Shown piece by piece: positions 1,335 to 41,946 of a stretch of 46,127 bases of DNA. Under the pieces are notes generated by a model. The model was not told the DNA's origin. It did no database searches and saw nothing but the letters and a program-made list of their open reading frames with translations. Source of the stretch: a virus; IMG/VR virus record IMGVR_UViG_3300048592_000656. One strand, written 5' to 3'. Position 1 is the first letter of the stretch. Every line of letters starts with the position of its first letter. Both the position numbers and the translations under genes were made by a program.

Positions 1335-1613
1335 ATGCCCAGAAGGCACAATCTCCAGACTAGTCCTCAGTTCAAGTTCCTCGAGGCCGGGATGTGGGCA
1401 TCGTTCTACGAATGCCGACGTTGCAAAGTCAAGATCCTCATCGATCCCGAGATCAATGAGGGTTGGGAGATCGAACATCAGTGCGATCTCCGACAATGGG
1501 CTCGGGAACAGAAGCGTGAGAGAACCCGAAGAGCTCGGAAGAGGGAAAGGTATCTCCGATTGTACTCGGGGCGGCCTTTCACTTGGAAGGAGTTCCAGGG
1601 CTACCTCAAGTAG
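1335..1613 (+). CDS. Hypothetical protein with CxxC and a basic tail (92 aa; alternative start 1392)
   Basis: ORF track. YECRRCKV...HQC, then an Arg/Lys-rich C-terminus. ATG 1392 has GAGG 5 nt upstream. Confidence 0.5.
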   Translation: MPRRHNLQTSPQFKFLEAGMWASFYECRRCKVKILIDPEINEGWEIEHQCDLRQWAREQKRERTRRARKRERYLRLYSGRPFTWKEFQGYLK

Positions 1614-1621
1614 CACAGTTG

Positions 1622-1657
1622 GACCGGCGATCTCGCACAGGGGTCGCCGGTCTTTCT
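1622..1657 (+). terminator. Intrinsic-terminator-like hairpin
   Basis: gaccggcga (1622-1630) pairs with tcgccggtc (1644-1652), a 9-bp GC-rich stem with a 13-nt loop. It is followed by tttct and lies 9 nt after the stop at 1613. Confidence 0.6.
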
Positions 1658-1722
1658 GTGCAAATCAGGTGAAGTTCTGCCTTGAGACCGAGGTGAATTT
1701 CGTCGTTTACAAGAAGGCGTAA

Positions 1723-2026: not shown

Positions 2027-2292
2027 GGTACACCCTAGAGGTCATCGTCCGAGAGGGTCCCATCGTAGGATTCAGGGACCCTTTCGGACAACCCCTCTGG
2101 GCGTACCACAAGATGTACGAAGTCTCAGTGTCAAATCAGTTCGCCTCATCCCACAACTTCTTTGAAGCTGTGGAGGAGGTCAATGAGTCGATTGCCAAAA
2201 TGACTCGACTCATGAACGATCTTGGGATAGTCGTACACTACAAAGTCCGAAGCTGTCATCACGTGTTTTTCCAGGAGTTCATCGCAGAATGA
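2014..2292 (+). CDS. Hypothetical protein (92 aa, GTG start)
   Basis: ORF track. Overlaps the neighbours by 13 nt and 4 nt, typical operon packing. No motif recognised. Confidence 0.45.
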   Translation: MEPLRYTLEVIVREGPIVGFRDPFGQPLWAYHKMYEVSVSNQFASSHNFFEAVEEVNESIAKMTRLMNDLGIVVHYKVRSCHHVFFQEFIAE

Positions 2293-4241
2293 GTTTGGAA
2301 CCCGATGTCGAGTTCTTGGAGTCTATCTTCCAAGAGCAGCCTGGAAAATACATCGCACTCTCGAGGAAGAAACAAGGCAGGTGGAAAGATCTTTTCTTCC
2401 CGAACCTAGAGGAAGCTGTCAACTGGATCAAGCGTCAATCAAATGACACAGACGTCTACTTTTGTCCGACCAAGCTCACTAGACGACGCCGGAGAAAGGA
2501 GTACGTCGCCCCGTCTAAGTTCCTGTGGGCTGATCTAGACGAAGCCGATCCGCGTGACTTGAAGCAAGCGATCAAGCCTACACATGCCTGGGAATCCAGC
2601 CCAGGGCGATTTCAGGCTCTATGGGAACTCGATAAGGCATATTCCCCACAGGAAATCGAGGGTCGCAACAAGGGGATTGCCGAAACTGTAGGCGCAGACA
2701 TTAGTGGTTGGGACTTGACACAGGTCCTTCGCGTCCCCGGAACATACAACAACAAATACCCCTCCCAGCCTCACATCGCCAAGATGTGGATCGATCACTC
2801 TGCTATTCGACCCCTCGTGAACTACCCAGATGCGTCGATAGCACCAATTCCAGACGACGAACAGGACACTTCGCTGGTCGCTAATCGCGCGTTCGTATCG
2901 CGTCTTTTGCGACCCTGGCGACATGCGATTCCGAAGAAGGTAGTCAGGTTGCTGCTGTCTGACAAGGCTACCACAGGTAAGCGATCAGACATGCTTTGGT
3001 ATATCGCTCACGAGTTGATTAAAGCTCGTGTGCCCGAGGATACAGCATTCCAGGCGATCAGGAACTCGGTATGGAACAAGTATCGAGGACGCCGGGATGA
3101 AATCCAAAGGCTTCAACATGAAATTGAAGAGGCTAGGAAAAGAGAGCGGCCTCAAGACGAAGCGATGGATCGCGAAAGACCGCTCTTTTCCATTGTAGAC
3201 CATCTTCAATTGATGGCTTCAGTTCACAGCAGGCCAAACTGGCTCATCGAGCAGTTTTGGTCTTACAACAGCCACGGGATCATCGCAGGCGAACCGAAGA
3301 CGTTCAAGTCTACGCTATGCCTCGATATGGCTATCTCTGTGGCATCGGGGACACCGCTCTTTGGCACATACAAGGTCACTGAGCCTGGGCCTGTTCTAGT
3401 CATCCAGAACGAGAACTCGGATTGGATCATGCAGGACCGCTCGAGGAAAATCTGTGCCACAAGAGGACTCGTTGGGGAAATGCATAGGAGAATCGATGAC
3501 GAGATCATCGTCCATGCACCTCCCAAGCTTCCCATTTACTACGTGAACCAACAAGGCTTTTCCTTCACCGATCCGATGCATACCGAATTCATCGAGGCTT
3601 GGTGTCAGGCGATCAAACCTAGGATGATCGTGTTCGATCCCTTGTATCTCATGTTCGACGGTGAGCTCAATTCCTCGAAAGACTTGAATCCCGTCCTTAG
3701 CTACCTCTTGTATCTCAAACAGGAATACAAGACAGCTATTGTCCTCATTCATCACTGGAACAAAGGTGGTCTCAGTAGTCGAGGTGGCCAACGAATGCTT
3801 GGATCTACAACCCTTCATGGTTGGACCGAATCGGCTTGGTACCTCAGCATCCGAGGCGTTGAGATCGAGAAGAAGGGCGAAGAGGAAGAAGATGAGCCTA
3901 CTGGAGTTCGACCCGCACTAGCCAAGCTAGTCATGGAACGCGAATTCCGTGGTTCTGGTATCTTCCCGAAGGTAGAGATGACTGTGGCAATGGGCGAATA
4001 TGGCAATGATCTTTATGCCGTCAACTTCGATTCCTATAAGCCACAGGCGCAACCGAAAGCATCTCGAGACGACCTCGAGGGCGATATCCTGAATCAGCTC
4101 CAGCTGAATGGAAAAGCTTCTCTTAAGAAGCTATCCGAACTTGTAGGAACTAGCCGTCGACTTGTAAGAGAGGTTACAGTGTCGATGGAGAAGAAGGGGA
4201 TATTGAAGAAGGTGGGCCAGACATACTCGGTGAAGGGGTGA
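2289..4241 (+). CDS. Bifunctional AEP primase-polymerase / RecA-like (RepA/AAA_25-type) helicase with a C-terminal winged helix
   Basis: N-terminal AEP motifs: WADLDEAD (DxD), SSPGRFQALW (sGxG.h-like), DLTQVLRVPGTYNNKY. Central P-loop IIAGEPKTFKSTLCLDMA, Walker B-like MIVFDPLYLMFDG and LIHHWNK. C-terminal LKKLSELVGTSRRLVREVTVSMEKKG. Confidence 0.85.
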   Translation: MSLEPDVEFLESIFQEQPGKYIALSRKKQGRWKDLFFPNLEEAVNWIKRQSNDTDVYFCPTKLTRRRRRKEYVAPSKFLWADLDEADPRDLKQAIKPTHAWESSPGRFQALWELDKAYSPQEIEGRNKGIAETVGADISGWDLTQVLRVPGTYNNKYPSQPHIAKMWIDHSAIRPLVNYPDASIAPIPDDEQDTSLVANRAFVSRLLRPWRHAIPKKVVRLLLSDKATTGKRSDMLWYIAHELIKARVPEDTAFQAIRNSVWNKYRGRRDEIQRLQHEIEEARKRERPQDEAMDRERPLFSIVDHLQLMASVHSRPNWLIEQFWSYNSHGIIAGEPKTFKSTLCLDMAISVASGTPLFGTYKVTEPGPVLVIQNENSDWIMQDRSRKICATRGLVGEMHRRIDDEIIVHAPPKLPIYYVNQQGFSFTDPMHTEFIEAWCQAIKPRMIVFDPLYLMFDGELNSSKDLNPVLSYLLYLKQEYKTAIVLIHHWNKGGLSSRGGQRMLGSTTLHGWTESAWYLSIRGVEIEKKGEEEEDEPTGVRPALAKLVMEREFRGSGIFPKVEMTVAMGEYGNDLYAVNFDSYKPQAQPKASRDDLEGDILNQLQLNGKASLKKLSELVGTSRRLVREVTVSMEKKGILKKVGQTYSVKG

Positions 4242-4267
4242 GTTTTTTCGTACGGACCTGCGGTCCA

Positions 4268-4280
4268 CCTGTCCTATAAT
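4268..4280 (+). promoter_or_regulatory. Promoter-like element CCTGTCCTATAAT (-10 TATAAT 4275-4280)
   Basis: Intergenic, after the PrimPol-helicase stop. TATAAT is followed by 7 nt (gcaattg) and then an in-frame ATG at 4288. A T5-6CGT run lies 27-32 nt upstream, as at 4916 and 8138. Confidence 0.5.
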
Positions 4281-4506
4281 GCAATTGATGGGGGGCGAAA
4301 TGATGACACGGCTACGAAGGATGCGAGAAGAGCGAGGATGGACTCGAGCAGATTTAGCCCGTCGGGCTCGAGTCTCTCTTCGTACTCTATACACCGCTGA
4401 AAAGACGGGTAACATCTCACAAAGGAAGAAAGTCCGAATCGTCCGGGTCTTCGGACTTTCCTGGCAAGAAGTATCCGAGGTCTTTTCCATGGTGGAACAT
4501 GTTTAG
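4279..4506 (+). CDS. XRE-family helix-turn-helix regulator (75 aa; probable real start 4288 or 4300)
   Basis: MTRLRRMREERGWTRADLARRARVSLRTLYTAEKTGNIS is a classic XRE/Cro-CI HTH. The track start 4279 lies inside the TATAAT box; ATG 4288 fits a leaderless start. Confidence 0.75.
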   Translation: MQLMGGEMMTRLRRMREERGWTRADLARRARVSLRTLYTAEKTGNISQRKKVRIVRVFGLSWQEVSEVFSMVEHV

Positions 4507-4903
4507 AGTAGTCATACGATTCAAAGATGAATCTAGAATCATCTCCAGGTTCTACAAGAAGACCGATGCCGAGGTTTTCAAGAGGATCTGTGAAGAACAA
4601 ATCAAACCGCCGTTCCTGCACGAGATATACGTCATCAATGCCCTTCGATGCATACCTCGTCCAGCGGACTTTCCAATCAACCGAAGGGAAAAGACAAATC
4701 GTCTCTGGTGTACGATCTGTGGATCTTTCCAAGTGTTCAAGCCTTGGACCAAGGGGATTCGTCGATGTCCTCGATGTGGAATCTCAGACCAGGACTTCAA
4801 CATTAGGAAAGAGAACGGATTGTTCCTGGATGACATCGAGTCGTTCATCCTCACAAGCAACTTCAGGTTCAAGGAAAAGAGGAAAGGCGAGGAGAAGAAG
4901 TAA
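4499..4903 (+). CDS. Hypothetical zinc-ribbon protein (134 aa)
   Basis: ORF track. CTICGSF...CPRCG (CxxC-x18-CxxC) and a Lys/Glu-rich tail. Confidence 0.55.
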   Translation: MFRVVIRFKDESRIISRFYKKTDAEVFKRICEEQIKPPFLHEIYVINALRCIPRPADFPINRREKTNRLWCTICGSFQVFKPWTKGIRRCPRCGISDQDFNIRKENGLFLDDIESFILTSNFRFKEKRKGEEKK

Positions 4904-4938
4904 TATCTCGCGGAGTTTTTCGTTCGACAGGTCGGCAA

Positions 4939-4952
4939 GCATGTTGTATAAT
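4939..4952 (+). promoter_or_regulatory. Promoter-like -10 (TATAAT 4947-4952) upstream of the nucleotide cassette
   Basis: Intergenic gcatgttgTATAAT. A T5CGT run (4916-4923) sits at the same ~27-31 nt distance seen at 4243 and 8138. GGAGGTGG SD, then GTG 4979. Confidence 0.4.
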
Positions 4953-4978: not shown

Positions 4979-5497
4979 GTGATTATCGTTGAGGGAATGG
5001 ACAACTCGGGCAAGACCACACTCGTGAACTATCTCGCGGAGACTTTCAACCTACCCGTCATACACTCGCCGGGTCCAAAGGCCGATCTCAATTACTTCAT
5101 GGTCGAGGCCATGATGACTGAGCTGAAGAACGAGCAAGTCATCTATGACCGATTCCCGGCATTCAGTGAAAGGGTTTACGGCCCGATCCTCAGAGGCCGA
5201 GATCACATCCAAGAGCGATACTTGGTACTGCTCGCCGCTCTCAAACCATACATCATCCACTGTGACCCAGGTCTGCACACAGTCCTGAGCACGATCAAAG
5301 ATCGTGAACAAATGGAGGGTGTCGAGGATCAGGCAGAACGTCTTTATCATCGGTATGAGAAGATCATGTTTCCCGAGGGAAACAAGCTTTTCTCTTTCCA
5401 TGTGACTCGATACAACTGGCATCATGAGATGTCTTACTCCTACATCAAACACAACGTAGCCCATTACCTCCAAACCCGAAAGGACAACCCGTGGTAA
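4979..5497 (+). CDS. dNMP kinase / thymidylate-kinase-like P-loop protein (172 aa, GTG start)
   Basis: N-terminal MIIVEGMDNSGKTTLVNYL matches the IxxEGxDGsGKTT P-loop signature of dTMP/dNMP kinases. First gene of the cassette. Confidence 0.65.
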   Translation: MIIVEGMDNSGKTTLVNYLAETFNLPVIHSPGPKADLNYFMVEAMMTELKNEQVIYDRFPAFSERVYGPILRGRDHIQERYLVLLAALKPYIIHCDPGLHTVLSTIKDREQMEGVEDQAERLYHRYEKIMFPEGNKLFSFHVTRYNWHHEMSYSYIKHNVAHYLQTRKDNPW

Positions 5498-5919
5498 ACA
5501 TCAAAGACATCGACCAAATGGAAAAAGAAGAAGATCATGGCCTCAAAGACAAGCTGGAAATCCTCTGGTGGAGACAGGGCCAGCTTCGATCTCGGTATGC
5601 AGAGATCGAGATCAAGAATGGTTTCCACGTGCCTGCTGGCGTGGCAGATCTCGACAATGCCAAGGATCAGCATTTCCTCAAAGACTTCGCCTGGCGAATC
5701 ACGGAGGAACTCGGCGAGGCAATGAACTGCCTCAAGAACAAGCCGTGGAAGCAGACGCACATGGAGACCGACAAGGAACACTTCGTGGAGGAGGTGATCG
5801 ACGGCTTCCATTTCTACATCGAAATGATGCAATGGATCGGCATCACTCCCGACGACCTCGTCGATCTATATCTCAAGAAGTCTCGAGTCAACAAGTTCCG
5901 TCAACGGAGCGGGTACTGA
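5491..5919 (+). CDS. All-alpha NTP pyrophosphohydrolase (dimeric dUTPase / MazG-like family)
   Basis: ITEELGEAMNCLKNKPWK...EHFVEEVIDGFHFYIEMM...YLKKSRVNKFRQRSGY resembles the dimeric dUTPase (dUTPase_2) pattern: ExxE, KxWK, ExxD, and a C-terminal K..N..R..gY. GTG start with a GAAAGGA SD. Confidence 0.6.
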   Translation: MVNIKDIDQMEKEEDHGLKDKLEILWWRQGQLRSRYAEIEIKNGFHVPAGVADLDNAKDQHFLKDFAWRITEELGEAMNCLKNKPWKQTHMETDKEHFVEEVIDGFHFYIEMMQWIGITPDDLVDLYLKKSRVNKFRQRSGY

Positions 5920-6167
5920 TGAAGCTCAGGCAGAAGCGATATATCTACGAAATCATCTTCAAATCGAAGCAAGGAGAAGTCACAAGAGCCGAGTTCGGTC
6001 CATGCCTCAACCCACCGAAGAGACTCAGCGTCAATGAAGACGGAGTCATTCGGATCGGGGTCTTTTCACACTGGTTCAAGGTGATCGACACAGACCGATA
6101 CTACGCGGTCTACAACGAAGAAGAAAGGGCACAAGTTGCTGACGATTCAGTCCAAGACGCTCTATAG
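5919..6167 (+). CDS. Hypothetical protein (82 aa) inside the nucleotide cassette
   Basis: Internal ATG of track ORF 5568..6167 forming an ATGA-type overlap (TGATG at 5917-5921) with the upstream gene. MKLRQKRYIYEIIFKSK...; no motif recognised. Confidence 0.5.
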   Translation: MKLRQKRYIYEIIFKSKQGEVTRAEFGPCLNPPKRLSVNEDGVIRIGVFSHWFKVIDTDRYYAVYNEEERAQVADDSVQDAL

Positions 6168-6957
6168 GTGCTGGAAAGACCTCAACCGAGGCTTCCTGAA
6201 CCCGGAGCTCGACAACACGGGAATGCTCATTCCCAACCGAGACTTCTCGAGGGTCATTCCACACGTTCGTCTAGTGGCCGAAGAGGGGTTCGGCCTTCCG
6301 TCGAACCTCAACAAGCTGCCTCAGTTTTTCTCCAACTATGATCGGCGAATGACCCTTCTGGGAAATCGCTACATCGATCCCGAACTGTGGCAGGAAGGCG
6401 TCGAACGGCTCGTGGCTCGACGAAGTCGAATGGCACGGACCAATCCGCTCAGCTTCGTCATTCCGTTCCACAGGAGGGCAACCAGCGAGCGAAAGGTACC
6501 GGCTGGTGGTGGGTGCCTGCAGACCATCACGTTCATCTGGGTGAACGGCCGATGGGAACTTCACGTCGCACTTCGAGCTTCCGAGATCACCGCAAGACTG
6601 ATCGCCGACATGCTGTTCGTGAAGCGATCCGTCAATGCCATCGTCGAGGAAGTCAACTTCAAGAAGTGGGAGCCCAAGACTCGGATCGTGTGGGACATCG
6701 CTCTGGCTTCCCAGATGAAGTACTTGGTACCCCTCTACGTCCTGTTCGCCGAAGGAGAGGGTCAAGTCATCAACGAGTACACTTCGGGAAAGCCTGAAGG
6801 TATCTGGCAAAACATTATCTGGGAGCACTTCTGGGATACGTTCATCTATCCCGAACGGATCACGTGGGCACAGCGCCGAAAGTGGTCCGAGAAGTTTCTG
6901 GAAATGACCAGCGCACCCTGGGCCAAGCTGGCCAAGGCAGGAAGGGACTTCAAGTAA
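6136..6957 (+). CDS. Divergent thymidylate-synthase-fold (ThyA-like) paralogue 1 (TTG start; alternative ATG 6223)
   Basis: Core GGGCLQTITFIWVNGRWELHVALRASE reproduces the ThyA active-site spacing C-x5-F-x4-G-x8-R (E. coli [23 protein letters not shown]). The N-terminal half is unlike canonical ThyA. Confidence 0.45.
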   Translation: MLTIQSKTLYRCWKDLNRGFLNPELDNTGMLIPNRDFSRVIPHVRLVAEEGFGLPSNLNKLPQFFSNYDRRMTLLGNRYIDPELWQEGVERLVARRSRMARTNPLSFVIPFHRRATSERKVPAGGGCLQTITFIWVNGRWELHVALRASEITARLIADMLFVKRSVNAIVEEVNFKKWEPKTRIVWDIALASQMKYLVPLYVLFAEGEGQVINEYTSGKPEGIWQNIIWEHFWDTFIYPERITWAQRRKWSEKFLEMTSAPWAKLAKAGRDFK

Positions 6958-7655
6958 TGCGAATCTACAAGACTTTCATCGAAGCAGTGAGCGAGATGCG
7001 ACGGGACCTCAAGGAAATGGGTATCGAGGTACATACCCAGACATACCAAGACAAGCACATCGGTCTCGACCCGAAGATGGCAACCCTCGAGCTCCAGAAC
7101 TACATCTTCACAGTCACGTACCCCAGCCTGGCCGACCTCGAGCCGGTTCAGCCCTGGGCTGATCTGGAATTCGAGGAGAGGGTTCGCCCTCCGCACCCTC
7201 GTGGCGTGAACCCGGGTGAAGCCTACAAGGCTCGAATCGACGTCTGGGAGCAATTCCTCGAGCGCGATGGCTGCTTCGGGTACACTTACTCGGATCGAAT
7301 CAACAACAACGATGGAGCCAGCCAAGTCGATCAAATCGTCAGGGCAATTCAAATCGATCCGAGCTCGAGACAGCTCTTCATGTCGATCTGGGAGCCCGAG
7401 GACCTTTTCAACATCGGAGGAGCTCGTCGAGTCCCGTGCACGCTGGGCTATCACTTCCAGGTTCGACGAGGTCGGCTCAACATCACGTACCTGCAACGAT
7501 CCGCTGACATGGCCACCCACCTTCAGAACGATCTCTATCTGGCTGCCCGGATGCAAGCTCACGTCGCTGAACTGACTGGGTATGAGGTAGGTACCTATAC
7601 CCACTGGTTCGGCTCCCTCCATGTCTTCAAGAAGGACGTCGAGGGCGTATTCTAG
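6957..7655 (+). CDS. ThyA-family enzyme, deoxypyrimidine-monophosphate hydroxymethylase/methylase-like (232 aa)
   Basis: Internal ATG of ORF 6864..7655 (TAATG overlap at 6955-6959). DPSSRQLFMSIWEPEDL, RRVPCTLGYHFQVRRGRLNITYLQRSADMATHLQNDLYL and GSLHVF align with the ThyA motifs sRR.i.s.WnP.d, PC...F.V..G.L....QRS.D......N and gd.H.Y. Confidence 0.8.
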   Translation: MRIYKTFIEAVSEMRRDLKEMGIEVHTQTYQDKHIGLDPKMATLELQNYIFTVTYPSLADLEPVQPWADLEFEERVRPPHPRGVNPGEAYKARIDVWEQFLERDGCFGYTYSDRINNNDGASQVDQIVRAIQIDPSSRQLFMSIWEPEDLFNIGGARRVPCTLGYHFQVRRGRLNITYLQRSADMATHLQNDLYLAARMQAHVAELTGYEVGTYTHWFGSLHVFKKDVEGVF

Positions 7656-7656
7656 C

Positions 7657-8136
7657 ATGGACGCAGTAGATCCGACCTTGGCGAGTCTTTTGGCAGTCGA
7701 CACCCAATGGGATCGATTGCAAAGAGATGAAATGTTCCTCGCCATCGCCAAGGTCGTTTCTCTGCGAGGAACCTGCAGAAGGGCTCAAGTGGGTGCGGTG
7801 ATCGTCAAAGAGAACCGAATCATCTCCACAGGCTACAATGGGTCTGCCCCGGGTATGCCCCATTGCTATGAAGATGGTTGTCTCGAGGACGTGAATGGTG
7901 GGTGCACTCGGACGGTACATGCTGAAGCCAACTCGATTCTGTGGGCAGCGAGGTTCGGGGTATCGGTTGAAGACTCGGTGATGTATTCAACTCATTCCCC
8001 TTGTCTCTACTGTGCAAAGATGATCGTGGGGGCTGGCATCGTCAAGGTCACCTATCTGCACCCATACCGAGACCCCGCTGGGCTTGACTACATGCACAAC
8101 TGTGGGCTACGATACTGTCACCTTCAGGTTGGGTGA
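7657..8136 (+). CDS. dCMP deaminase (CMP/dCMP-type zinc deaminase)
   Basis: VHAEANSILWAA (HAE) and HSPCLYCAKMI (PCxxC) zinc-binding motifs. Start taken at ATG 7657, 1 nt after the upstream stop. Confidence 0.85.
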   Translation: MDAVDPTLASLLAVDTQWDRLQRDEMFLAIAKVVSLRGTCRRAQVGAVIVKENRIISTGYNGSAPGMPHCYEDGCLEDVNGGCTRTVHAEANSILWAARFGVSVEDSVMYSTHSPCLYCAKMIVGAGIVKVTYLHPYRDPAGLDYMHNCGLRYCHLQVG

Positions 8137-8162
8137 CTTTTTCGTTTGGGTTCCTGGGTACG

Positions 8163-8175
8163 CCTGAGATATAAT
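8163..8175 (+). promoter_or_regulatory. Promoter-like 13-mer CCTGAGATATAAT (-10 TATAAT 8170-8175)
   Basis: Intergenic and identical to the 13-mer at 13436-13448. ATG 8187 is 11 nt after the -10. TTGGGT lies 18 nt upstream, and a T5CGT run is at 8138-8145. Confidence 0.6.
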
Positions 8176-8186: not shown

Positions 8187-10799
8187 ATGGCAACAGTAAA
8201 CGGCGATCCTCGATGCACGTTATGTCCCCTTCACAAGACTGCACAGATCGTGTGTCTTATGGGTCGGGGGCCTCTCCCTTGCAAGGTGATGATCGTAGGC
8301 GAGGCACCTGGTCGAAGGGAGGATGACGTTGGTAAGCCCTTTCAAGGTGCTGCTGGGCGCGTTTTGGACGAGGAGCTTTCGCTCAACGATGTATCGAGGA
8401 ATGACGTTTACATCACCAACACAGCCCGATGTAGACCACCCAGGAATCGAACTCCCAAGGCCGTAGAGATTCGTGAATGCGCCATCTGGATGGAGAAGGA
8501 GTTCAAGGAAGTTCAACCCAAGTTCGTTCTCTTGATGGGTCGAACTGCTTTGAAGACCGTGCCATTCTGGAAAAAAGCGAGCATCACGAAGATCCGAGGC
8601 CAGATCTACGAGCACGATGGCGTCTATTACATGGCTACGTTCCACCCTGCAGCCTGTCTGCCTGGAAGAGATACTGGCCGTGATAAGAAGCGCCCGGCAT
8701 TCCGAATCGACTTGAGTACCTTCTTCAAGTTGGTACGAGACGGGAAACCCCAGGAAACTGAGGGATTGAACGTCCAGATAGTTCGGAATGCCGACACTTT
8801 CAACGAGATGATCGACGACCTTCGAGAATGTCCCGATCCCTCGTATGACTTGGAAACCATGGGCCTTCGACCTCACGTGCCAAAGAAAGACATAGTCCTG
8901 GCTGGCTTTGGTACAGAAAAAGCTCAATGGGTCGTACCCATCAATTATCCCACAGCCGACGGAGGCAACAAGGCCCCGTTCAAGACTCGTCGGTCTAGGA
9001 AAATGGCTTGGGAATTGATCGGCGAAGCAATCCACGGTAAAAAGCTCATTACCCACAATGGCAAGTTCGACGCTTTGTGGGCATATACGAGATATGGCGT
9101 GATGCCGTATATTGGCTTCGACACGATGCTTGCTCACTATGTTCTAGATGAGAATTCACCGCACGCTCTCAAGTACCTTGGCCCTCTCTACTTTGGTATC
9201 CATGATTGGTCATTGGATATGGAAGGCGAATGGTGGCTCAGGTATACGCTCAAGGAATCGTCGAAGTATCTAGCTCAGGATCTTTTCTACACTCGAAAGT
9301 TGAAAGGCATCTTGTATGCTGAGCTAAGAAAAGACCCCGCGCTACTCCGATTCTACCGAACAATCCTTCTGCCTGCTTTCAGGCTCTATGCTCGAGTCGA
9401 AAAGGAAGGTATGTTTCTCAATATGGCCAACTACGAGGCGGCCAAATCTCACGCAATGAATCTTTGGGGTAGGGCATGCCTCGAGGTCAATAGAATCGAC
9501 CCCTCCATCAATTGGGGATCGCCGAAGCAAGTAGCCAAAAAGCTATATGAGGAGTTTGGCTTTCCCATCATCAAGACGACAAAGAAGGGAGCTCCGTCGT
9601 CAGATGAGGCCACACTTACCATCTTGGCTGAACCCCCCGACAAACCCATCCATATGTCTATCACTCGGCCAAATGAAAATCCAAAGATATTCGGCTCGAG
9701 AAAGACTATCGAATGGTGGTCCGGATACAAACACGAGATTCCACAAGCTCTTTTGAATCATCGGGCAGCGAAGAAAATGAAGGAGTTTGTGGATTCGTGG
9801 GAAGAACACCAGCAAGGTGGGCTAATTCACCCGTCTTACAAATTCCTCACCGTCACGGGTCGACTCTCTTGTGAAGGTCCTAACATTCAGCAAACGCCTC
9901 GAGAAAAAATCTTGAGGCAATGCTTTGATGCCCCCTTTCCGTTCATCTTCGTCGAGGCCGACCATTCACAGGTCGAACTCCGAGGCGTAGCGATGTTCGC
10001 TCCCGAGCCTACGATGAAAGCCATCTTCATCGCAGGCGAAGATATTCACAGGATGACTGCTCGAGACATCATTGGGATTGCTAACCCTACAGCCGAAGAC
10101 CGAAAGAAAGCAAAGGCAGTCAACTTTGGTCTCATCTACAGGATGGGCTGGAAAAAGCTACGAATCTACGCTCGTACCAAGTACGGAGTTGAGCTTTCTC
10201 CCGGGGAAGCGAAGAAGATCGTCAAGAATTACTTCCTGAAGTACAATCGACTCCGGTATTACTACGAGAAGCAAGAACGAGTAGCTCGGATGAATGGCTA
10301 TGTCCGTCATCCGTTGGGTCGCGTTCGCCACCTTCCCAATATCTTTTCTGAAGACGAACAAGAGCAGAACGAGGCAATTCGACTTGCCATCAATTCCCCG
10401 GTTCAGGGGTTCGCTTCAGATTACAATCTAGCGGGCATGGTTGACGTCGACCTTGAATTCAATCCCACTTGGGATGGTCCGCTACGAATCGTAGGAACGG
10501 TTCACGACTCGGGGCTGATGTGGGTCCATGCTCTTCATCTCCGTCGAATCCTCCCGAGGGTGAAGGAGATCATGGAGCATCCGCCCCGAGTCAAGAACAA
10601 AATCGGATTTACTCCTACGGTGCCTTGGAAGGTCGATTTCAAGATCGGCCCTTGGGGCGCTGGCAAGGAAATCGATCCGATGGCATGGGAAAATTGGGAA
10701 GTCTTCGTCAAAGACATGAAGGAGTCTGGTCAATGGGAACGGTACAAGCAGGCGAGGGAAGCGAAGAAGATCGACTCGTCGTTTCCCTCAGTCGGATAA
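8187..10799 (+). CDS. polA: Family-4 uracil-DNA-glycosylase domain fused to a family A DNA polymerase with 3'-5' exonuclease
   Basis: UDG4: CTLCPL, GEAPGRREDDVGKPFQGAAGRVLDE, ARCRPPRNRTP, FHPAA. Exo: YDLETMGL, HNGKFD, YLAQDLFY. Pol: ADHSQVELRG (motif A), KAKAVNFGLIYRMG (motif B), GTVHDSG (motif C). ATG 8187 is preferred over the track TTG at 8175. Confidence 0.9.
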   Translation: MATVNGDPRCTLCPLHKTAQIVCLMGRGPLPCKVMIVGEAPGRREDDVGKPFQGAAGRVLDEELSLNDVSRNDVYITNTARCRPPRNRTPKAVEIRECAIWMEKEFKEVQPKFVLLMGRTALKTVPFWKKASITKIRGQIYEHDGVYYMATFHPAACLPGRDTGRDKKRPAFRIDLSTFFKLVRDGKPQETEGLNVQIVRNADTFNEMIDDLRECPDPSYDLETMGLRPHVPKKDIVLAGFGTEKAQWVVPINYPTADGGNKAPFKTRRSRKMAWELIGEAIHGKKLITHNGKFDALWAYTRYGVMPYIGFDTMLAHYVLDENSPHALKYLGPLYFGIHDWSLDMEGEWWLRYTLKESSKYLAQDLFYTRKLKGILYAELRKDPALLRFYRTILLPAFRLYARVEKEGMFLNMANYEAAKSHAMNLWGRACLEVNRIDPSINWGSPKQVAKKLYEEFGFPIIKTTKKGAPSSDEATLTILAEPPDKPIHMSITRPNENPKIFGSRKTIEWWSGYKHEIPQALLNHRAAKKMKEFVDSWEEHQQGGLIHPSYKFLTVTGRLSCEGPNIQQTPREKILRQCFDAPFPFIFVEADHSQVELRGVAMFAPEPTMKAIFIAGEDIHRMTARDIIGIANPTAEDRKKAKAVNFGLIYRMGWKKLRIYARTKYGVELSPGEAKKIVKNYFLKYNRLRYYYEKQERVARMNGYVRHPLGRVRHLPNIFSEDEQEQNEAIRLAINSPVQGFASDYNLAGMVDVDLEFNPTWDGPLRIVGTVHDSGLMWVHALHLRRILPRVKEIMEHPPRVKNKIGFTPTVPWKVDFKIGPWGAGKEIDPMAWENWEVFVKDMKESGQWERYKQAREAKKIDSSFPSVG

Positions 10800-11737: not shown

Positions 11738-12542
11738 GCCCGACTCGATGAGCGAGTCCAAGGGCACAGCATCAGAGAAGATCAAGAAGAGGATCAAGCC
11801 CATCGCTGCTCTGGAACTGATCCTATCCGTCCTGATCTACGGAAGATCTGGTACGGGCAAGACCAGCTTCGCAGCCACAATGGCTGACATCGTTCCCGAA
11901 GGGAAGAAGGTACTCCTGATCGACGTCCGAGAACAGGGTCAGGATTCGATTTCAGAATACGGTGACCGAGTCGACGTCTTCCGAGCAGATACCTGGGACG
12001 ACTTCGTCGGAGCCTACTGGTATCTCAAGGAAATGGAACATCCCTACGGGGGCGTGATCATCGATACCGTCACACAGGTTCAATCTCTGGCAATGCAGTG
12101 GGCCAAGCAAAAGGCCAAGAGTCCCGAAGTGATGTCAAGAAGGGCATGGGGTTTCCTAGGGTCTGCACTCAGTCCCGTACTACTGGACTATCGAGACCTT
12201 CCCATCCACACATGCTTCTTGGCTCAGGACCGAAAGTCGATCAATGACGATACCGAAGAGGAGATGGGCGATCTACTTCCTGACTTCGGCCCGGCCATGA
12301 TGCCCTCTGTGGCAAAGGACCTCAATGCGATGGTAAAGGCCATCGGTCAGACTCACATCAAGCAAAGGGAGAAAAAGAAGGACGGCAAAATCACCAAAAT
12401 CACGGAGTTCCGGATGCGACTTGGGCCTCATCCGGTATATCTGACCAAGGTTCGATCGCCCAAGGGTTCCAAGGTACCGGGATTCATTGTGGATCCCACG
12501 TTCGAGAAAATCCTGAAGATCATGAAGGGAGAATCGGTTTGA
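11718..12542 (+). CDS. AAA_24 / Sak4-like RecA-fold ATPase (recombination-associated)
   Basis: LIYGRSGTGKTSFAATMA (Walker A), VLLIDV and GVIIDTVTQVQ (Walker B region). ATG 11718 with a GGGAAAGG SD. Confidence 0.7.
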   Translation: MLKRKRKPDSMSESKGTASEKIKKRIKPIAALELILSVLIYGRSGTGKTSFAATMADIVPEGKKVLLIDVREQGQDSISEYGDRVDVFRADTWDDFVGAYWYLKEMEHPYGGVIIDTVTQVQSLAMQWAKQKAKSPEVMSRRAWGFLGSALSPVLLDYRDLPIHTCFLAQDRKSINDDTEEEMGDLLPDFGPAMMPSVAKDLNAMVKAIGQTHIKQREKKKDGKITKITEFRMRLGPHPVYLTKVRSPKGSKVPGFIVDPTFEKILKIMKGESV

Positions 12543-13102
12543 AGAGCAAGAGTTCGACCAAGTCGAAGAAGACTTCCTCGAGCACGTCCTCGAAGGACAC
12601 GAAGTCGATCGACTTCTCTGGCGTCCAGTCTGGTGGTCGCAAGAAGATCCCCGAGGGTGACTACCGCTTCAAGGTGGACAAGGCCTACTGGGATGAGTCG
12701 GAAGCGGGCAACGACATGGTCGTGTTCGAGTCCGTCGTAGCAGAGGGCGCCCAGAAGGGATGGCGAGGCTGGACCTACTGCGCAGTCACGCCGAAGGCTC
12801 TGTGGAAGCTCCGACAGATGCTCGAGGCTCTCGGGGTCGAGGTTCCCGAAGGGAAGAAGCTCGCCGTCAACCCGAAGAAGTACATCGGTCTCGAGCACGG
12901 GGGAACCGTCGAGTCCGAGGAGTACGACGGCAAGAAGCGGTCCAAGATCACGGACATCTTCCACGTGGATCAACTCGGTGATGGGGAGGAGGAAGAAGAG
13001 GAAGAGACCGAGGAAGACGATTCCGAAGAAGAAGAGGAAGAAGAGGAAGAGTCGGACGACGACGATTCCGAAGAGGAAGAAGAAGAGGAAGAGGACGACT
13101 AG
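12539..13102 (+). CDS. Probable ssDNA-binding protein (DUF669-like) with an extreme acidic tail (TTG start)
   Basis: Lies immediately after the Sak4-like ATPase. IPEGDYRFKVDKAYWDESEAGNDMVVFES core. The last ~45 aa are almost entirely Glu/Asp. Confidence 0.45.
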   Translation: MKSKSSTKSKKTSSSTSSKDTKSIDFSGVQSGGRKKIPEGDYRFKVDKAYWDESEAGNDMVVFESVVAEGAQKGWRGWTYCAVTPKALWKLRQMLEALGVEVPEGKKLAVNPKKYIGLEHGGTVESEEYDGKKRSKITDIFHVDQLGDGEEEEEEETEEDDSEEEEEEEEESDDDDSEEEEEEEEDD

Positions 13103-13411: not shown

Positions 13412-13435
13412 CAGGTCCTTTACGAGACGACCTCG

Positions 13436-13448
13436 CCTGAGATATAAT
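13436..13448 (+). promoter_or_regulatory. Promoter-like 13-mer CCTGAGATATAAT (-10 TATAAT 13443-13448)
   Basis: Intergenic. TTTACG lies 18 nt upstream of the -10. ATG 13456 begins exactly 7 nt after the -10, so a leaderless transcript is predicted. Confidence 0.6.
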
Positions 13449-13455: not shown

Positions 13456-14835
13456 ATGACGAAAATCCCTCTCAAACTACACCAAAAGCTTGGCATAGCC
13501 CGAGCGATGAAGTTTGACGGTTACGCTCTTTATTTCAAACAGGGAGTAGGGAAGACTGCTGCAGCCATTGGTTATCTCGAGGCTAGGCAACCAATCTCTA
13601 CAGTCCTTGTTATTTGTCCGCCGGTCGTGATTGATACATGGCTGGAAGAAATCGAAAAGTTCGCCGACTTTGAGCGAAGGGTGATCCGGTTAGATGACTT
13701 CGGAGCACTGCAGGGAGCTGAGTTTCGATCGCTCGTTAGGAAATCAAGGGGTGCAAAAAACACCCTAATCGTTCTCGCAGGCTATCAGCTCGTAGTCCGA
13801 AGGAAGAACTGGTTCAAGAGACTGCGATGGGACGTCGCGATTGCCGACGAATCCCATATGATTAAGAAACATTCCTCGAAGCAATCTAAAGTCCTATATC
13901 AAATTGGGAAATTGACCCAGTACAAATTGCTTTTGTCTGGGACCCCATTTGATAAGGGCGGTCTCGACGTCTTCGCCCAATACCGATTTGCATGTCCCGA
14001 AGTGTTTGGGACCCATTGGGGTAAATTCACCGAGAGATATGCCAAGAACATCGGGTATGGGTACACTAAGCTTGTGGTCAAAGAGACTAAGAAGGCCAAG
14101 CTTAGGGAAAAGATTCATTCACGGATGATGAGGGTTGAGATCGAGGACGTCGAGCAAATGCCCGAGCTCAATCATTCCGTGAAGCGGTTCGATCTCGAGC
14201 CCGACGTCAAAAAGATATATGATGAGCTCGAGGCTGAAGCTGTGGCAGAATTCAAGGGCAAGATGGCTTTTGCTCCTGTGGTTCTAGCGAAGACTACCCG
14301 TCTGCAACAGATTGCAGGAGGTTTCTTCGTAGACGATAGGAAACAAATTCACAGGATTAGCCGAGCTAAGACTCGGAAGCTAAAAGAACTTCTCCAGCAG
14401 ATCGGGAATGAGAAGGTCGTAATCTACTGTAGATTCAGACCCGAGATAGAAGCAGTTGCCAAGCTTTGCACTGCTATGGGTCTCAATCCCATCCAAATGC
14501 ATGGGGGCATTAACCGAAGAAAGCGAATGCCGCTCCGAAAGCAGTTTGTGCAGGACCGGTCGGCAAAAGTCTTCGTTTCACAGATCCGTGTCGGTGGGAT
14601 CGGGGTTAACGAGCTTCGGGTAGCTCGCATTGGGATTATGTACTCCACGACGCACTCGTGGATTGATTTCGACCAAGCCGTAACACGCCTATACAGGAAA
14701 GGACAGACTAGGAATGTAATCTTCTATCATCTGATTGCCAGAGACACAGTGGATGAAGATATCTACAAGACCGTTAAATCCAAGGGTAAGCGTACACAAG
14801 TCCTTCTTCGGATGGAACAAAGGAGAACCGCTTGA
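13456..14835 (+). CDS. SNF2-family DNA helicase/translocase
   Basis: FKQGVGKTAAAI (motif I), IADESHMIK (DExH), LLLSGTP (motif III), and C-terminal helicase motifs SQIRVGGIGVNEL and QAVTRLYRKGQ. Confidence 0.85.
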   Translation: MTKIPLKLHQKLGIARAMKFDGYALYFKQGVGKTAAAIGYLEARQPISTVLVICPPVVIDTWLEEIEKFADFERRVIRLDDFGALQGAEFRSLVRKSRGAKNTLIVLAGYQLVVRRKNWFKRLRWDVAIADESHMIKKHSSKQSKVLYQIGKLTQYKLLLSGTPFDKGGLDVFAQYRFACPEVFGTHWGKFTERYAKNIGYGYTKLVVKETKKAKLREKIHSRMMRVEIEDVEQMPELNHSVKRFDLEPDVKKIYDELEAEAVAEFKGKMAFAPVVLAKTTRLQQIAGGFFVDDRKQIHRISRAKTRKLKELLQQIGNEKVVIYCRFRPEIEAVAKLCTAMGLNPIQMHGGINRRKRMPLRKQFVQDRSAKVFVSQIRVGGIGVNELRVARIGIMYSTTHSWIDFDQAVTRLYRKGQTRNVIFYHLIARDTVDEDIYKTVKSKGKRTQVLLRMEQRRTA

Positions 14836-15283: not shown

Positions 15284-15622
15284 CTATCTCGGAGGTCCCC
15301 GAGTTCGTTGCTTCTTGTATGGCCACCTAGTCCATCCAAGCTCTCGGACTACGCGGTAATACATCGAAGCAACTTTCTCGGGGACCCCGTAGAGAATCAA
15401 CTCATAGAATAGCTGAGCATCCGCTATGAGTCGATCCTCTTCGGTTCCACCTACCCAATACGCAGAATCATGATTCAGACAAGGGATACCGCCCGCTATG
15501 TCAGGCGAAGCGGTACAACCCTGGTCTGCTGATCCCAAGACATACTGGGCTGATTCTTCACTGTGGAGCCAAGTCGGAGCACAGGCCAGACTGAGGAGTA
15601 AAACTACGGTGAATCTTTTCAC
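15284..15622 (-). CDS. Secreted small protein with an HDxxY motif (DUF1353-like from memory)
   Basis: Signal-peptide-like MKRFTVVLLLSLACAPTWL. PDIAGGIPCLNHDSAYWVGG...RLIADAQLFYELI. Confidence 0.5.
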   Translation of the reverse strand: MKRFTVVLLLSLACAPTWLHSEESAQYVLGSADQGCTASPDIAGGIPCLNHDSAYWVGGTEEDRLIADAQLFYELILYGVPEKVASMYYRVVRELGWTRWPYKKQRTRGPPR

Positions 15623-38878: not shown

Positions 38879-38884
38879 ATTATA
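38879..38884 (-). promoter_or_regulatory. Candidate late-operon -10 box (minus strand ATCAGGTATAAT)
   Basis: The minus strand reads ccgatCAGGTATAATcc, 43 nt upstream of GTG 38835. It is related to the GAGATATAAT boxes on the + strand. Confidence 0.35.
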
Positions 38885-39191
38885 CCTGATCGGCACTCGG
38901 CCTGTAAAGGTTGCCCTCGCATCGCTGGCAAGTTAGTCGCAATTCGAGCGCCTAGGAGTTGAGCCCCTGACTGAGTTTCAATTTCTCCCGGTTCTGGCAC
39001 CGGCGTTTCAAAGCCCCAGTTAGACTGGTTGTCTCCGGAAGAGACGGTCTTGTTTGACGTTTGTTGGGCGGGACAGGGCCGCGTTTCGCGCGCGTCGATT
39101 TCGGGGGGTGCGTCGCGACGCGCACACAAACGAAACGCGCGCCGAGTGTCGCCACCCGACGCGCGCTCGTTTGCGCTAGTGCGCTTGCGCG

Positions 39192-39599: not shown

Positions 39600-39867
39600 C
39601 GCGTTAGTGCGATCGAACGAGTGCAGTATCGAACGCGCGCGAACGAAACGCAAGCGCATAACGCGCGAATTGTTTTATACTCGCGCGTTTTATAAATTCC
39701 AACGTCGCGAACGCGCGAACCGCAATCCATCGTCGTCCGTTCATTTCACGTCCGCTCACGTCATCTCACGTCATCTCATCTCACCTCATCCGCGCGCGCT
39801 CGAAACCTGACCTGACCGGACTAGATCGGGCGCTGGGGCCTGACTTGACCAGACCTCGAGTGAGGTG

Positions 39868-40034
39868 GTTCTCAGGCATGAGTCAGGCGCTCCATCGCGA
39901 TCATGCGAGCCCGTTCTCGGTCTCTCTAGATCTGGAGAGATAAAGTTCTCAGGCGTGGGATGGTTCTCAGTAGCAGGTTCTCGGCGTGGTTCTCAGGCGT
40001 GGTATAGTTCTCAGGCCTGCCAGGCTTTGAGAAC
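39868..40034 (+). repeat. Iteron cluster 1: seven direct GTTCTC(A/G)G copies plus one inverted copy
   Basis: GTTCTC starts at 39868, 39913, 39945, 39963, 39977, 39989 and 40007 (extended consensus GGTTCTCAGGCGTGG). Inverted GAGAAC at 40029-40034. ORF-free. Confidence 0.85.
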
Positions 40035-41933: not shown

Positions 41934-41946
41934 CCTGTGATATCGT
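41934..41946 (+). promoter_or_regulatory. Promoter-like motif CCTGTGATATCGT heading a 520-nt ORF-free stretch
   Basis: Same motif class as the two leftward copies. The next convincing CDS starts at 42466. Confidence 0.45.

Follow-up and report, generated by a model that had tools for sequence, protein, structure and literature searches.

We consider it likely, judging from the sequence, that the 13-mer CCTGAGATATAAT is the core of about ten sigma-70/sigma-A extended -10 promoters that the host RNA polymerase holoenzyme would use in an uncultivated 46-kb tailed phage that is apparently lytic. This reading draws on the sequence anatomy of the sites, their enrichment, their placement, their conservation pattern and the position of a start codon, all of which were directly observed; we infer that RNA polymerase initiates at the sites and that no factor beyond the host holoenzyme is required. 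The last six bases of each site (TATAAT, TATGAT, TATCGT, or TAGAAT) would be the -10 hexamer, and the preceding C-19 Y-18 T-17 G-16 W-15 G-14 A-13 would contain the extended -10, an element read by sigma domain 3 that can compensate for a weak -35.

The sites are predicted to start or re-start transcription of the primase-helicase operon, the XRE regulator, the nucleotide-metabolism genes, UDG-PolA and the SNF2 helicase, and to serve as promoters for the small divergent genes in the control region at 40.6-42 kb. At two of them the promoter would follow an intrinsic-terminator-like hairpin, and an SNF2 transcript that began about 7 nt past the hexamer would be leaderless. The genome, a circular assembly in which bases 1-127 are identical to 46001-46127, has a G+C content of about 54% and a non-coding share of 9.7%; the window referred to below is this whole stretch of 46,127 nt.

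Distribution and anatomy of the sites

The exact 13-mer is present at 8163-8175 and 13436-13448, as reported in the initial annotation, and the identity between these two copies extends to 15 nt (CGCCTGAGATATAAT). The close variants CCTGTGATATAAT (41603-41615) and CCTGCGATATGAT (1723-1735) and the looser relatives CCTGTCCTATAAT (4268-4280) and CAGGTATAAT (minus strand, 38888-38879) were also recovered where that annotation had placed them, and we found a further site of the same type, which it did not include, at 44790-44802 (GTTGTCATAGAAT). By simple arithmetic the lone exact pair is not significant, since each strand of 46 kb would contain about 16 such pairs by chance. The family as a whole is significantly enriched: allowing up to 2 mismatches, CCTGAGATATAAT has 5 matches against 0.66 expected (0/100 shuffles), and the claim that the core is commoner than chance was borne out by 9 copies of CYTGNGATAT (0.36 expected) and 8 copies of CYTGNGATAYNRT (0.08 expected), neither count being reached in any of 100 shuffles.

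Half of the 18 genome matches to C.TG...TA...T fall within the 9.7% of DNA that is non-coding (binomial p = 1.6e-5), and all nine of these are co-oriented with the next gene, as expected if the copies point at the genes downstream. The statement that every copy is intergenic was too broad, since two copies of the 10-mer core (40395+ and 5868-) are intragenic, on the antisense strand and without a TAnnnT hexamer. One full-pattern match (19621-) lies inside a tail gene. More generally, TG at -17/-16 accompanies 13/72 TAnnnT hexamers in non-coding DNA against 29/396 in coding DNA (p = 0.006). The total number of sigma-70-like matches given by a simple scan was not above chance; among the best consensus matches, three of the top four in 1-16 kb, including the very best (P4940), and the top three in 36-46 kb were these intergenic sites or the late promoter.

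Table 1. Proposed extended -10 sites, the putative late promoter, terminator-like hairpins and the SNF2 gene in the window. Scores are matches to the sigma-70 consensus.
Feature	Coordinates	Strand	-35 region (matches to consensus)	Spacer and its last bases	-10 hexamer	Score	Remarks
P1723	1706..1735	+	TTTACA 1706-1711 (>=4/6)	18 nt, CCTGCGA 1723-1729	TATGAT 1730-1735	10/12	predicted to drive the gene at 1766 and the primase-helicase operon
P4268	4243..4280	+	weak, ACGGAC 4252-4257 (<=3/6), after T-run/TTTTTCGT 4243-4251	17 nt, CCTGTCC 4268-4274	TATAAT 4275-4280		predicted to drive the XRE-type HTH gene, start 4303
P4940	4916..4952	+	TCGACA 4924-4929 (>=4/6), after TTTTTCGT 4916-4923	17 nt, CATGTTG 4940-4946	TATAAT 4947-4952	11/12	predicted to drive the gene at 4979
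P8163	8146..8175	+	TTGGGT 8146-8151 (<=3/6)	18 nt, CCTGAGA 8163-8169	TATAAT 8170-8175		predicted to drive UDG-PolA, ATG 8187
P13436	13419..13448	+	TTTACG 13419-13424 (>=4/6)	18 nt, CCTGAGA 13436-13442	TATAAT 13443-13448	10/12	
P41603	41586..41615	+	poor, CCCACA (<=3/6)	18 nt, CCTGTGA 41603-41609	TATAAT 41610-41615		full extended -10
P41934 (GATATCGT class)	41934..41946	+	A/T-rich upstream region (<=3/6)	CCTGTGA	TATCGT		
P44790	44774..44802	+	TCGACA 44774-44779 (>=4/6)	17 nt, GTTGTCA 44790-44796	TAGAAT 44797-44802	10/12	
P41432	41432..41460	-	TTTACT 41460-41455 (>=4/6)	17 nt, CCTGAGA 41444-41438	TATCGT 41437-41432		leftward; predicted to drive genes 41389-41138 and 41133-40912
P40678	40678..40706	-	TCGACA 40706-40701 (>=4/6)	17 nt, CTTGAGA 40690-40684	TATCGT 40683-40678		leftward; predicted to drive the gene 40629-40240
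Late promoter, packaging/structural operon	38879..38908	-	TTTACA	18 nt	TATAAT	11/12	sigma-70-like
Terminator-like hairpin	1613..1661	+					upstream of P1723, followed by UUUCUGUG; dG -39.3 kcal/mol, z -8.8
Terminator-like hairpin	8117..8145	+					stem 8117-8137, U5 tail/TTTTTCGT 8138-8145; directly upstream of P8163
SNF2 helicase gene	13456..14835	+					ATG 7 nt after TATAAT, no Shine-Dalgarno

Aligned on TAnnnT, the ten sites (Table 1) read R-20 C-19 Y-18 T-17 G-16 W-15 G-14 A-13 TATAAT, and all of them are non-coding, upstream of a gene and co-oriented with it. The hexamer is present in 10/10 sites (TATAAT five times, TATCGT three times, TATGAT and TAGAAT once each) and so is T-17 G-16, bearing in mind that 8 of the sites were found via patterns containing TG. 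G-14 occurs in 7/10 sites and T-15 in 5/10, the two together only at 41603 and 41934; TGAG, with A in place of T at -15, is the commonest variant. C-19 and Y-18 are each found in 9/10 sites and A-13 in 8/10. Most sites have a -35-like hexamer (TTTACA or TCGACA type) separated from the -10 by 17-18 nt. The two sites with full TGTG have the weakest -35 matches (0-3/6), a correlation in the sequences that fits the expectation for -35-independent extended -10 promoters. The late promoter has G-14 without T-17 G-16 and is thus only a looser relative.

A T-run or TTTCG often immediately precedes the -35. The run T5-6CGT had been noted at three sites, and TTTTTCGT does occur exactly three times (4244, 4916, 8138), each time directly upstream of the -35 position; these three copies alone are not above chance, and the one at 4916 belongs to a promoter without CCTG (CATGTTGTATAAT, 4940-4952). 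We rejected the possibility that the run is a terminator tail at all three sites because only 8117-8137 folds convincingly (dG -14.4 kcal/mol, z -3.25) and 4205-4252 and 4880-4924 do not. It may instead be an upstream promoter element.

Conservation, terminator-like hairpins and gene starts

Four orthologous sites could be compared in a relative of about 75% nucleotide identity (L001, L005). The -19..-13 heptamer was identical at 27/28 positions, the -10 at 21/24, the -35 at 20/24 and the spacer at 23/44 (heptamer against spacer, Fisher p = 5e-5), and the orthologous hexamers were TACGAT or TATAAT. At P1723, L005 keeps TTTACA and CCTGCGATAyGAT with a diverged spacer, and at P8163 the L001 orthologue reads TAGGGT-N11-CCTGAGATACGAT. 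P4268 appears as CCTGTCATATAAT in L006 and CCTGTCGTATAAT in L005, P4940 as CGTGTCGTATAAT in L006 and P41432 as CTTGAGATATCGT in strain L007; P44790 is conserved in L005, and P13436 is identical in strains L009 and L010. The strain variants keep the pattern, CCTG becoming CTTG at 41443 and CCTGTCC becoming CCTGTCA at 4268. The more distant L002 (45% PolA identity) was uninformative, having no intergenic gaps at the matching positions and a single CYTGNGATA match without TAnnnT.

The hairpin preceding P1723 also folds in L005 (dG -32.2), with changed stem bases. The JGI gene call upstream of this promoter, ORF 1456-1722, was rejected since it contains the conserved terminator hairpin and L005 keeps another frame; the putative gene 1335-1613 is preferred.

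The product of the gene behind P13436 contains a Pfam SNF2 domain, and its start at 13456 is confirmed by a homologue that aligns from residue 3. Most genes of the phage have a Shine-Dalgarno sequence (SD); for SNF2 the SD duplex reaches only -2.7 kcal/mol, the median over the genome being -6.9. From the ATG 7 nt past TATAAT and the missing SD, the SNF2 mRNA is predicted to be leaderless, and probably is; transcription start sites across bacteria are centered 7 bp downstream of the -10 (PMC12641261). A point against the promoter reading is that the polA gene has a good SD (GGAG) between the -10 and the ATG, which would be absent from the transcript if this began 7 nt after the hexamer. At P41603 the hexamer is followed 8 nt later by an ATG (7 nt later in strain L007), and the ORF at 41624 is doubtful, being absent from the protein collection. 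P41934 is about 520 nt from the next called gene (42466). A leaderless start of the XRE gene at ATG 4288 was discarded, as this ATG is missing from L006, where the SD-led ATGACACGG start is retained with a G-rich SD in front of its ATG.

Alternative readings of the conserved word

CGCCTGAGA is present in 4 copies against 0.67 expected; two belong to the exact promoter copies and the other two to units of the CCTGAGAAC array at 39.9-40.0 kb. In the control region CCTGA is five-fold enriched, and CCTGAGA occurs 10 times in 39.87-42.09 kb against about 0.5 under uniform spacing, with inverted pairs at 41464-41486 and 41660-41681. As CGCCTGAGA is common to promoters and array and CCTGA is enriched, a protein-binding role is conceivable.

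The alternative that survives best, unlikely in our view, is that CCTGAGA (C-19 to A-13) serves above all to bind a DNA-binding protein encoded by the phage, which would repress or activate the promoters from the spacer and -10. Candidates would be the two XRE HTH proteins (genes 823-1110 and 4303-4506), the primase-helicase through its winged-helix C-terminus and the 135-aa basic protein of 39192-39599. Such a protein would also bind the CCTGAGAAC arrays of the control region, much as in Rep/iteron autoregulation or at mycobacteriophage operators/stoperators, and its binding would be compatible with the sites being promoters. Besides the word counts and inverted pairs, this proposal can call on the heptamer being kept better in the relative (27/28 positions) than the -10 is (21/24), on the preference for A over the canonical T at -15 and on the HTH genes adjoining the sites. 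In the arrays, however, the invariant part is GAGAAY; in the promoters it is C.TG and TAnnnT, with variation in GAGA (GCGA, GTGA, GTCC, GTTG), and every intergenic copy has a proper -10 at a fixed distance, for which a free-standing operator would have no need. The palindrome at 41464-41486 gets a terminator-hairpin score too, no integrase, repressor or lysogeny module was recognized in the phage genome, and T-17 G-16 .. G-14 are already accounted for by sigma domain 3 (PMC6212719).

Equally doubtful is the related idea that CGCCTGAGA/CCTGAGA is the word of a phage protein (e.g., a replication initiator or an XRE regulator) acting both on the iteron-like CCTGAGAAC arrays and on the polA and SNF2 promoters. 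If this were the case, occupancy of the origin in the 39.9-42 kb control/origin region would be coupled to the expression of replication genes; the likeness to TRTG would be part of the story, with C-19, Y-18, A-15 and A-13 as protein contacts. What C-19, Y-18 and A-15 add in specificity, together with the word CGCCTGAGA common to promoters and array, poses a small testable question on regulator binding.

It is very improbable that the motif serves a phage-encoded sigma factor or RNA polymerase, as in T7, N4, SPO1 (gp28) or T4 (gp55). The consensus is unusually uniform across sites, and the 151-aa product of 15619-16074(-) gave a weak sub-threshold Sigma70_r4_2/HTH_Crp_2 signal (Sigma70_r4_2 E = 0.009), but a PDB sequence search with this protein returned no match, and Pfam and PHROGs detected no phage RNA polymerase, clear sigma factor or sigma region 2 in the genome, divergent factors being possible. 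Moreover, the -10 and -35 are canonical primary-sigma elements, the same type of sequence drives bacterial tRNA genes, and the sites include the first control-region promoters, which are needed before any phage protein exists.

Slimmer still are the chances that the motif acts in RNA or translation, as a start-associated sequence (SAS) of the 13-bp cluster K type or an RNA processing site, and not as a promoter. Three copies do end 7-11 nt from start codons (13456, 41624, 8187), but the hexamer-to-start distances vary between 7 and about 520 nt, nothing in the motif resembles an SD, and the conserved -35 at 17-18 nt would have no role; neither Rfam families nor tRNA genes were found in the phage genome. 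Finally, chance or a compositional artifact of AT-rich intergenic DNA sharing a short word is effectively refuted, for although one exact 13-mer pair is expected in 46 kb and three copies of TTTTTCGT are not above chance, no shuffle reached the motif counts, the sites are restricted to intergenic, co-oriented positions (p = 1.6e-5) and the motif is selectively conserved in the diverged relative.

Host clues and comparison with known systems

Homologues give a contradictory picture of the candidate hosts. PolA and primase are closest to proteins of Pseudomonas, Serratia and Clostridium phages equally (31-40% identity), TerL to those of a Methanosarcinales-associated virus and Arthrobacter phages (36-38% identity), and the relatives of the MCP come from Gemmatimonadota, Acidobacteriota and Immundisolibacter MAGs. 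Megablast of 8 kb of the phage against GenBank phages gave no match, viral contigs scanned with PolA yielded no relative, an exact look-up of the MCP returned no record, and a scan of genome contigs with a conserved polA 23-mer for a binned copy or host gave 0 matches. The style of the promoters, with a strong TG/G-14 extended -10, some weak -35 elements and a leaderless start, hints at a host among bacteria where promoters of this kind and leaderless mRNAs are common, such as Actinobacteria or other Terrabacteria, and could guide host prediction. The sites also provide a usable transcription map for a phage lineage without a cultured relative: about ten early/replication promoters and one late promoter are predicted, along with two terminator-promoter junctions and a probable leaderless gene.

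The initial annotation had called the motif a phage-specific promoter consensus. That the sites are promoters is supported by their position and orientation, the -35 at 17-18 nt, the footprint in the relative, the terminators upstream of two sites and the SD-less start 7 nt after TATAAT. The term phage-specific is not supported for most of the upstream bases, T-17 G-16 (N-15) G-14 being the known TRTG element (PMC6212719, PMC12641261), and many bacterial genomes have CCTGTGATATAAT, preceded at 17-18 nt by TTGACA, in front of tRNA genes. TTGACA-N10-11-CCTGNGATATAAT had at least 120 matches in bacterial genomes; among the matches listed, N was T in 108 and A in only 3, and 21 were followed by tRNA genes. 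Since the conserved extra bases are mostly those of a classical extended -10, no new promoter class is needed. Only C-19/Y-18, A-13 and the preference for A over T at -15 are left unaccounted for by the textbook element.

In known systems the extended -10, T-17 R-16 T-15 G-14, lies one nucleotide upstream of the hexamer, where sigma domain 3 recognizes it (PMC6212719, PMC12641261); as cited in PMC6212719, the "-16 region" TRTGn of primary sigma factors goes back to Voskuil and Chambliss (1998) and Mitchell et al. (2003). The phage TAnnnT is likewise preceded, one base apart, by this element, which is complete at 41603 (TGTG-A-TATAAT) and 41934 (TGTG-A-TATCGT), where the -35 is poor. The phage variant TGAG, i.e., T-17 G-16 A-15 G-14, is that of the sigAP-TG2 construct, in which T-17 G-16 put into a promoter with A-15 G-14 still stimulated transcription by M. 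tuberculosis RNAP (PMC6212719). The phage sites differ from the class in that T-15, important in the systems tested, is A or C at half of them and that C-19, Y-18 and A-13 are also conserved; recognition here is predicted.

The stoperators/operators of L5-type mycobacteriophages are asymmetric 13-bp repressor sites present in 20-30 copies. The phage motif is similarly an asymmetric 13-mer that sits in short stretches between genes, follows the direction of transcription and overlaps promoter elements, but there are 7-10 copies, each intergenic one has a proper -10 in fixed register, and a repressor/integrase module was not detected in the phage. The 13-bp SAS of cluster K mycobacteriophages lies at a fixed 3-8 bp upstream of start codons and contains the SD, unlike our motif, whose distance to the start varies from 7 to about 520 nt and which lacks an SD.

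Lytic phages have conserved sets of early/middle promoters for the host polymerase, including terminator-promoter cassettes of the T4 PeSL type. Like these, the phage promoters are near-identical, co-oriented and located in short intergenic gaps, some directly after a stem-loop. Unlike them, the copies have only 13-15 nt in common; their flanks are unrelated and thus show no sign of a mobile cassette.

The SigA consensus of Corynebacterium glutamicum has been given as tgngnTA(c/t)aaTgg and GnTAnAnTnG, the upstream tg being weakly conserved and dropped from the later version (PMC1779776, PMC3917453). Its TG-n-G-n-TAyAAT spacing is exactly that of TGAGATATAAT, and P8163 even continues with TGG. 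The G+C content of C. glutamicum is similar to the phage value of about 54%. One phage gene start is of the leaderless type, as in actinobacterial leaderless transcripts; the only homology link to actinophages is the TerL identity of about 36% to Arthrobacter phages. We therefore take the likeness to C. glutamicum SigA promoters as a lead on the host and not as membership.

Recurrence of the motif in the phage genome

The sequences quoted in the initial annotation were all present at their positions. The exact 13-mer pair (8163-8175 and 13436-13448) was unremarkable in itself, ~16 such pairs being expected per strand in 46 kb by arithmetic; the motif family recurred far above chance, with 5 occurrences at up to two mismatches (0.66 expected), 9 of CYTGNGATAT (0.36 expected) and 8 of CYTGNGATAYNRT (0.08 expected), counts reached in 0/100 shuffles. 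The pattern C.TG...TA...T matched at 18 places, nine of them in non-coding DNA, which makes up 9.7% of the genome in the curated gene map (p = 1.6e-5); each of the nine pointed toward the next gene, as had been claimed. The statement that every copy is intergenic was slightly overstated: the 10-mer core also occurs within genes at 40395+ and 5868-, in both cases without a TAnnnT hexamer, and one full-pattern match (19621-) is intragenic too. An additional site of like build was found at 44790-44802. The T-run quoted at 4916 goes with a promoter that has CATGTTG as its heptamer, not CCTG.

Bases 1-127 recur exactly at 46001-46127 as a direct terminal repeat. The 46,127-nt window represents a 46,000-bp genome assembled as a circle or in circularly permuted form, and genes and motif counts near the window's ends are thus doubled. 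The genome is that of a tailed phage without close GenBank relative; megablast against GenBank gave no match, and the best tblastn match of PolA reached 37.5% identity. Neither integrase, RNA polymerase nor clear sigma factor was detected in the genome with Pfam and PHROGs.

Mapped features (gene map from Pfam and PHROGs)
Feature	Position	Strand	Remark
Rightward block	~41.6 kb, over junction, to 15.2 kb	+	
Two XRE-type HTH proteins	rightward block	+	
RepB-primase/AAA_25 helicase	2289-4241	+	
dUTPase-like (dUTPase_2-like), thymidylate-synthase-like, dCMP deaminase	rightward block	+	
UDG-PolA	8187-10799	+	
PD-(D/E)XK nuclease; AAA_24 protein	rightward block	+	
SNF2 helicase	13456-14835	+	
Leftward block	39.4 kb to 15.3 kb	-	
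TerS, TerL, portal, SPP1-gp13-like capsid protein, lysozyme	leftward block	-	
1754-aa tape measure, tail proteins	leftward block	-	
Control region, 2.7 kb	39.8-42.5 kb		small divergent genes, many repeats
(C)GCCTGAGAAC array	39860-40030	-	5-6 copies in ~140 nt
CCTGAGAAC array	39875-40014	-	two CGCCTGAGA copies; lies within 39860-40030
17-nt tandem TGAAAGTAGCCCGAACT	40078-40142		x3.8; contains CCTGA
24-nt unit CCTGATACCTACTGGACTCTAAGG	40751-40841		x3; contains CCTGA
GTTCTCRG array (GCCTGAGAAC reverse complement)	41745-41870	+	~6 copies in ~125 nt
Terminator-like hairpin	1613-1661		dG -39.3 kcal/mol, z -8.8
Terminator-like hairpin	8117-8137		then U5
GC-rich hairpin, very strong	39133-39168	-	16 pairs
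GC-rich hairpin, very strong, bidirectional	40212-40232 (within 40205-40240)		7-8 pairs; directly after gene 40240-40629
CGTCGCG-N5-CGCGACG	40640-40677	-	after GATATCGT-class promoter
CGCGTCG-N6-CGACGCG	41400-41431	-	after GATATCGT-class promoter
ACGATC-N9-GATCGT	41947-41975	+	after GATATCGT-class promoter

Nucleotide-metabolism genes are densely packed (5491-8136 and 8187-10799); the thymidylate-synthase-family protein matched its Pfam model over the C-terminal two-thirds only, and PolA carries a uracil-DNA-glycosylase domain at its N-terminus. This block and UDG-PolA could reflect DNA that is modified or kept strictly free of uracil. A 151-aa protein encoded at 15619-16074 (-), where the leftward block ends, gave weak, sub-threshold matches to Sigma70_r4_2 (E = 0.009) and HTH_Crp_2 (E = 2e-4) and no sequence match in PDB; it is possibly a small transcription factor. 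Coding repeats rich in GAA/GAG/GAC (12980-13100 and 45150-45330) give long acidic tails to a DUF669-like protein (12539-13102) and a Lys/Glu-rich protein (44874-45332).

Anatomy, conservation and surroundings of the sites

Ten intergenic sites were aligned on the hexamer. Upstream, the consensus was R-20 (10/10), C-19 and Y-18 (9/10 each), T-17 and G-16 (10/10 each), T5/A4/C1 at -15, G-14 (7/10) and A-13 (8/10), followed by the hexamer T-12 A-11 T-10 (9/10) N N T-7. Six of the ten have a -35-like hexamer 17-18 nt upstream (TTTACA, TTTACG, TTTACT and TCGACA three times), and the remaining four have weak -35 boxes; at five sites TTTTTCGT or TTTCG abuts the -35 on its upstream side. A simple sigma-70 scan placed these sites at the top ranks in both genome halves, with a total match count not above chance.

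The nearest relatives are fragments, either from ENA sample ERZ2854929 (L001, L003 and L005; ~71-79% DNA identity) or JGI strain variants (L004 and L006-L010; 97-100%). For the four promoter sites with orthologues in the ENA relative, hexamer-anchored, gap-free comparison gave identities of 27/28 for the heptamer (-19..-13), 21/24 for the -10 hexamer, 20/24 for the -35 hexamer, 23/44 for the spacer (-30..-20) and 38/56 for the downstream 14 nt (heptamer versus spacer, Fisher test, p = 5e-5). Judged from these alignments, conservation is distributed as would be expected for a two-block promoter with its -10 block extended seven bases upstream. Strain variants stayed within the consensus (CCTG to CTTG at 41443; CCTGTCC to CCTGTCA).

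Terminator-like hairpins precede two of the promoter sites. The stronger one, at 1613-1661, is kept in L005 with different stem bases; a public gene call (1456-1722, 88 aa) overlaps it, and the frame 1335-1613, conserved in L005, stops just before it. The SNF2 gene, downstream of P13436, cannot start upstream of ATG 13456, and residue 2 of a homologue with 41% identity aligns with residue 3 of its product. This ATG lies 7 nt past TATAAT, and Shine-Dalgarno pairing in front of it is essentially absent (-2.7 versus a genome median of -6.9 kcal/mol). Across bacteria, the distance from the -10 to the transcription start centres on 7 bp (PMC12641261), so initiation at P13436 would yield a leaderless mRNA. 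SNF2 is probably a leaderless gene, a geometry that would be difficult to account for if no promoter lay there; the public JGI call (L010 998) evidently begins 17 codons too far downstream, an example of automatic annotation overlooking a leaderless-type start.

The layout at 41603/41624 is similar, with an ATG 8 nt after the hexamer (7 nt in strain L007). The ORF that follows (41624-41908, 94 aa) has no family match and is filled with repeats, GTTCTCRG copies together with an inverted CCTGAGA pair (41660-41681); because it is so packed and its product is missing from the protein collection, where those of neighbouring genes are present, it is at least doubtful and probably not coding. A leaderless start at 4268 was rejected on the evidence of strain L006, which places the start of the XRE gene at the SD-led ATG 4303.

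With the terminator-promoter junctions and the probable leaderless gene among the evidence, the best reading of the sites is that they are primary-sigma promoters of the extended -10 type, which as a set would organise transcription of the early and replication genes. The three GATATCGT-class promoters have a CG-rich inverted repeat within the first 5-30 nt of the predicted transcript, possibly an operator or 5' stem-loop. The ~520 nt (41947-42465) from P41934 to the gene called next (42466) lack both a convincing ORF and a match in Rfam; a long leader, a non-coding RNA or small genes missed by annotation could account for them.

Repeat arrays of the control region

C-19, Y-18 and A-13 lie outside the textbook element, and A at -15 is preferred by the phage and rare among the bacterial matches listed. 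These bases could reflect recognition of CCTGAGA by a DNA-binding protein of the phage, which would be compatible with promoter function. The 9-mer CGCCTGAGA occurs 4 times versus 0.67 expected, in two exact promoter copies and two array units, and the control region (39780-42480) contains about five times as many CCTGA copies as genome-wide density predicts (48 versus 8.8), inside several repeat families including GGCCTGACTAGACCTGAAG (x3) and ACCTGACCTGACC. Both the GCCTGAGAAC and GTTCTCRG arrays flank divergent promoters and have CCTGAGA in common with the promoter motif. However, the conserved part is GAGAAY in the arrays but C.TG and the hexamer in the promoters, the CCTGAGA palindrome at 41464-41486 also scores as a terminator, and no repressor module is recognisable in the genome; we consider such a regulator unlikely. 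The arrays and the AT-rich stretch 39660-39700 look like origin iterons and an unwinding element, and the two GC-rich hairpins probably act as terminators at the borders of the control region.

Relation to known extended -10 promoters

The extended -10 element, T-17 R-16 T-15 G-14, lies one nt upstream of the hexamer; sigma domain 3 reads it, and it can make the -35 dispensable (PMC6212719); the complete TGTG-A-hexamer at 41603 and 41934 fits their having the poorest -35 boxes. TRTG is common in Firmicutes (PMC12641261). In M. tuberculosis, ~8% of promoters have T-17 G-16 alone, and T-17 G-16 put into an A-15 G-14 promoter (TGAG) still stimulates transcription (PMC6212719). A scan for TTGACA-N10-11-CCTGNGATATAAT across 185,579 genomes of bacteria and archaea gave at least 120 loci, against a rough chance estimate of a few tens over all these genomes. 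Among the 120 matches listed, 108 had T at N, 9 had C and 3 had A, a tRNA gene came next on the same strand in 21, and most had A/T-rich UP-like DNA upstream. The CCTGTGATATAAT variant thus appears to be an ordinary strong bacterial promoter core and cannot be called phage-specific. What survives of the consensus first proposed is a recurrent set of probable promoters, whose upstream extension is for the most part the known extended -10 element.

Homology hints on the host conflict; the promoter style and the predicted leaderless start may hint at a Gram-positive-type or actinobacterial host. The later C. glutamicum consensus is GnTAnAnTnG (PMC3917453), and the older SigA consensus, tgngnTA(c/t)aaTgg (PMC1779776, PMC10024154), has exactly the spacing of the phage TGAGATATAAT. 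The phage itself is novel; its predicted promoters belong to an already known kind.
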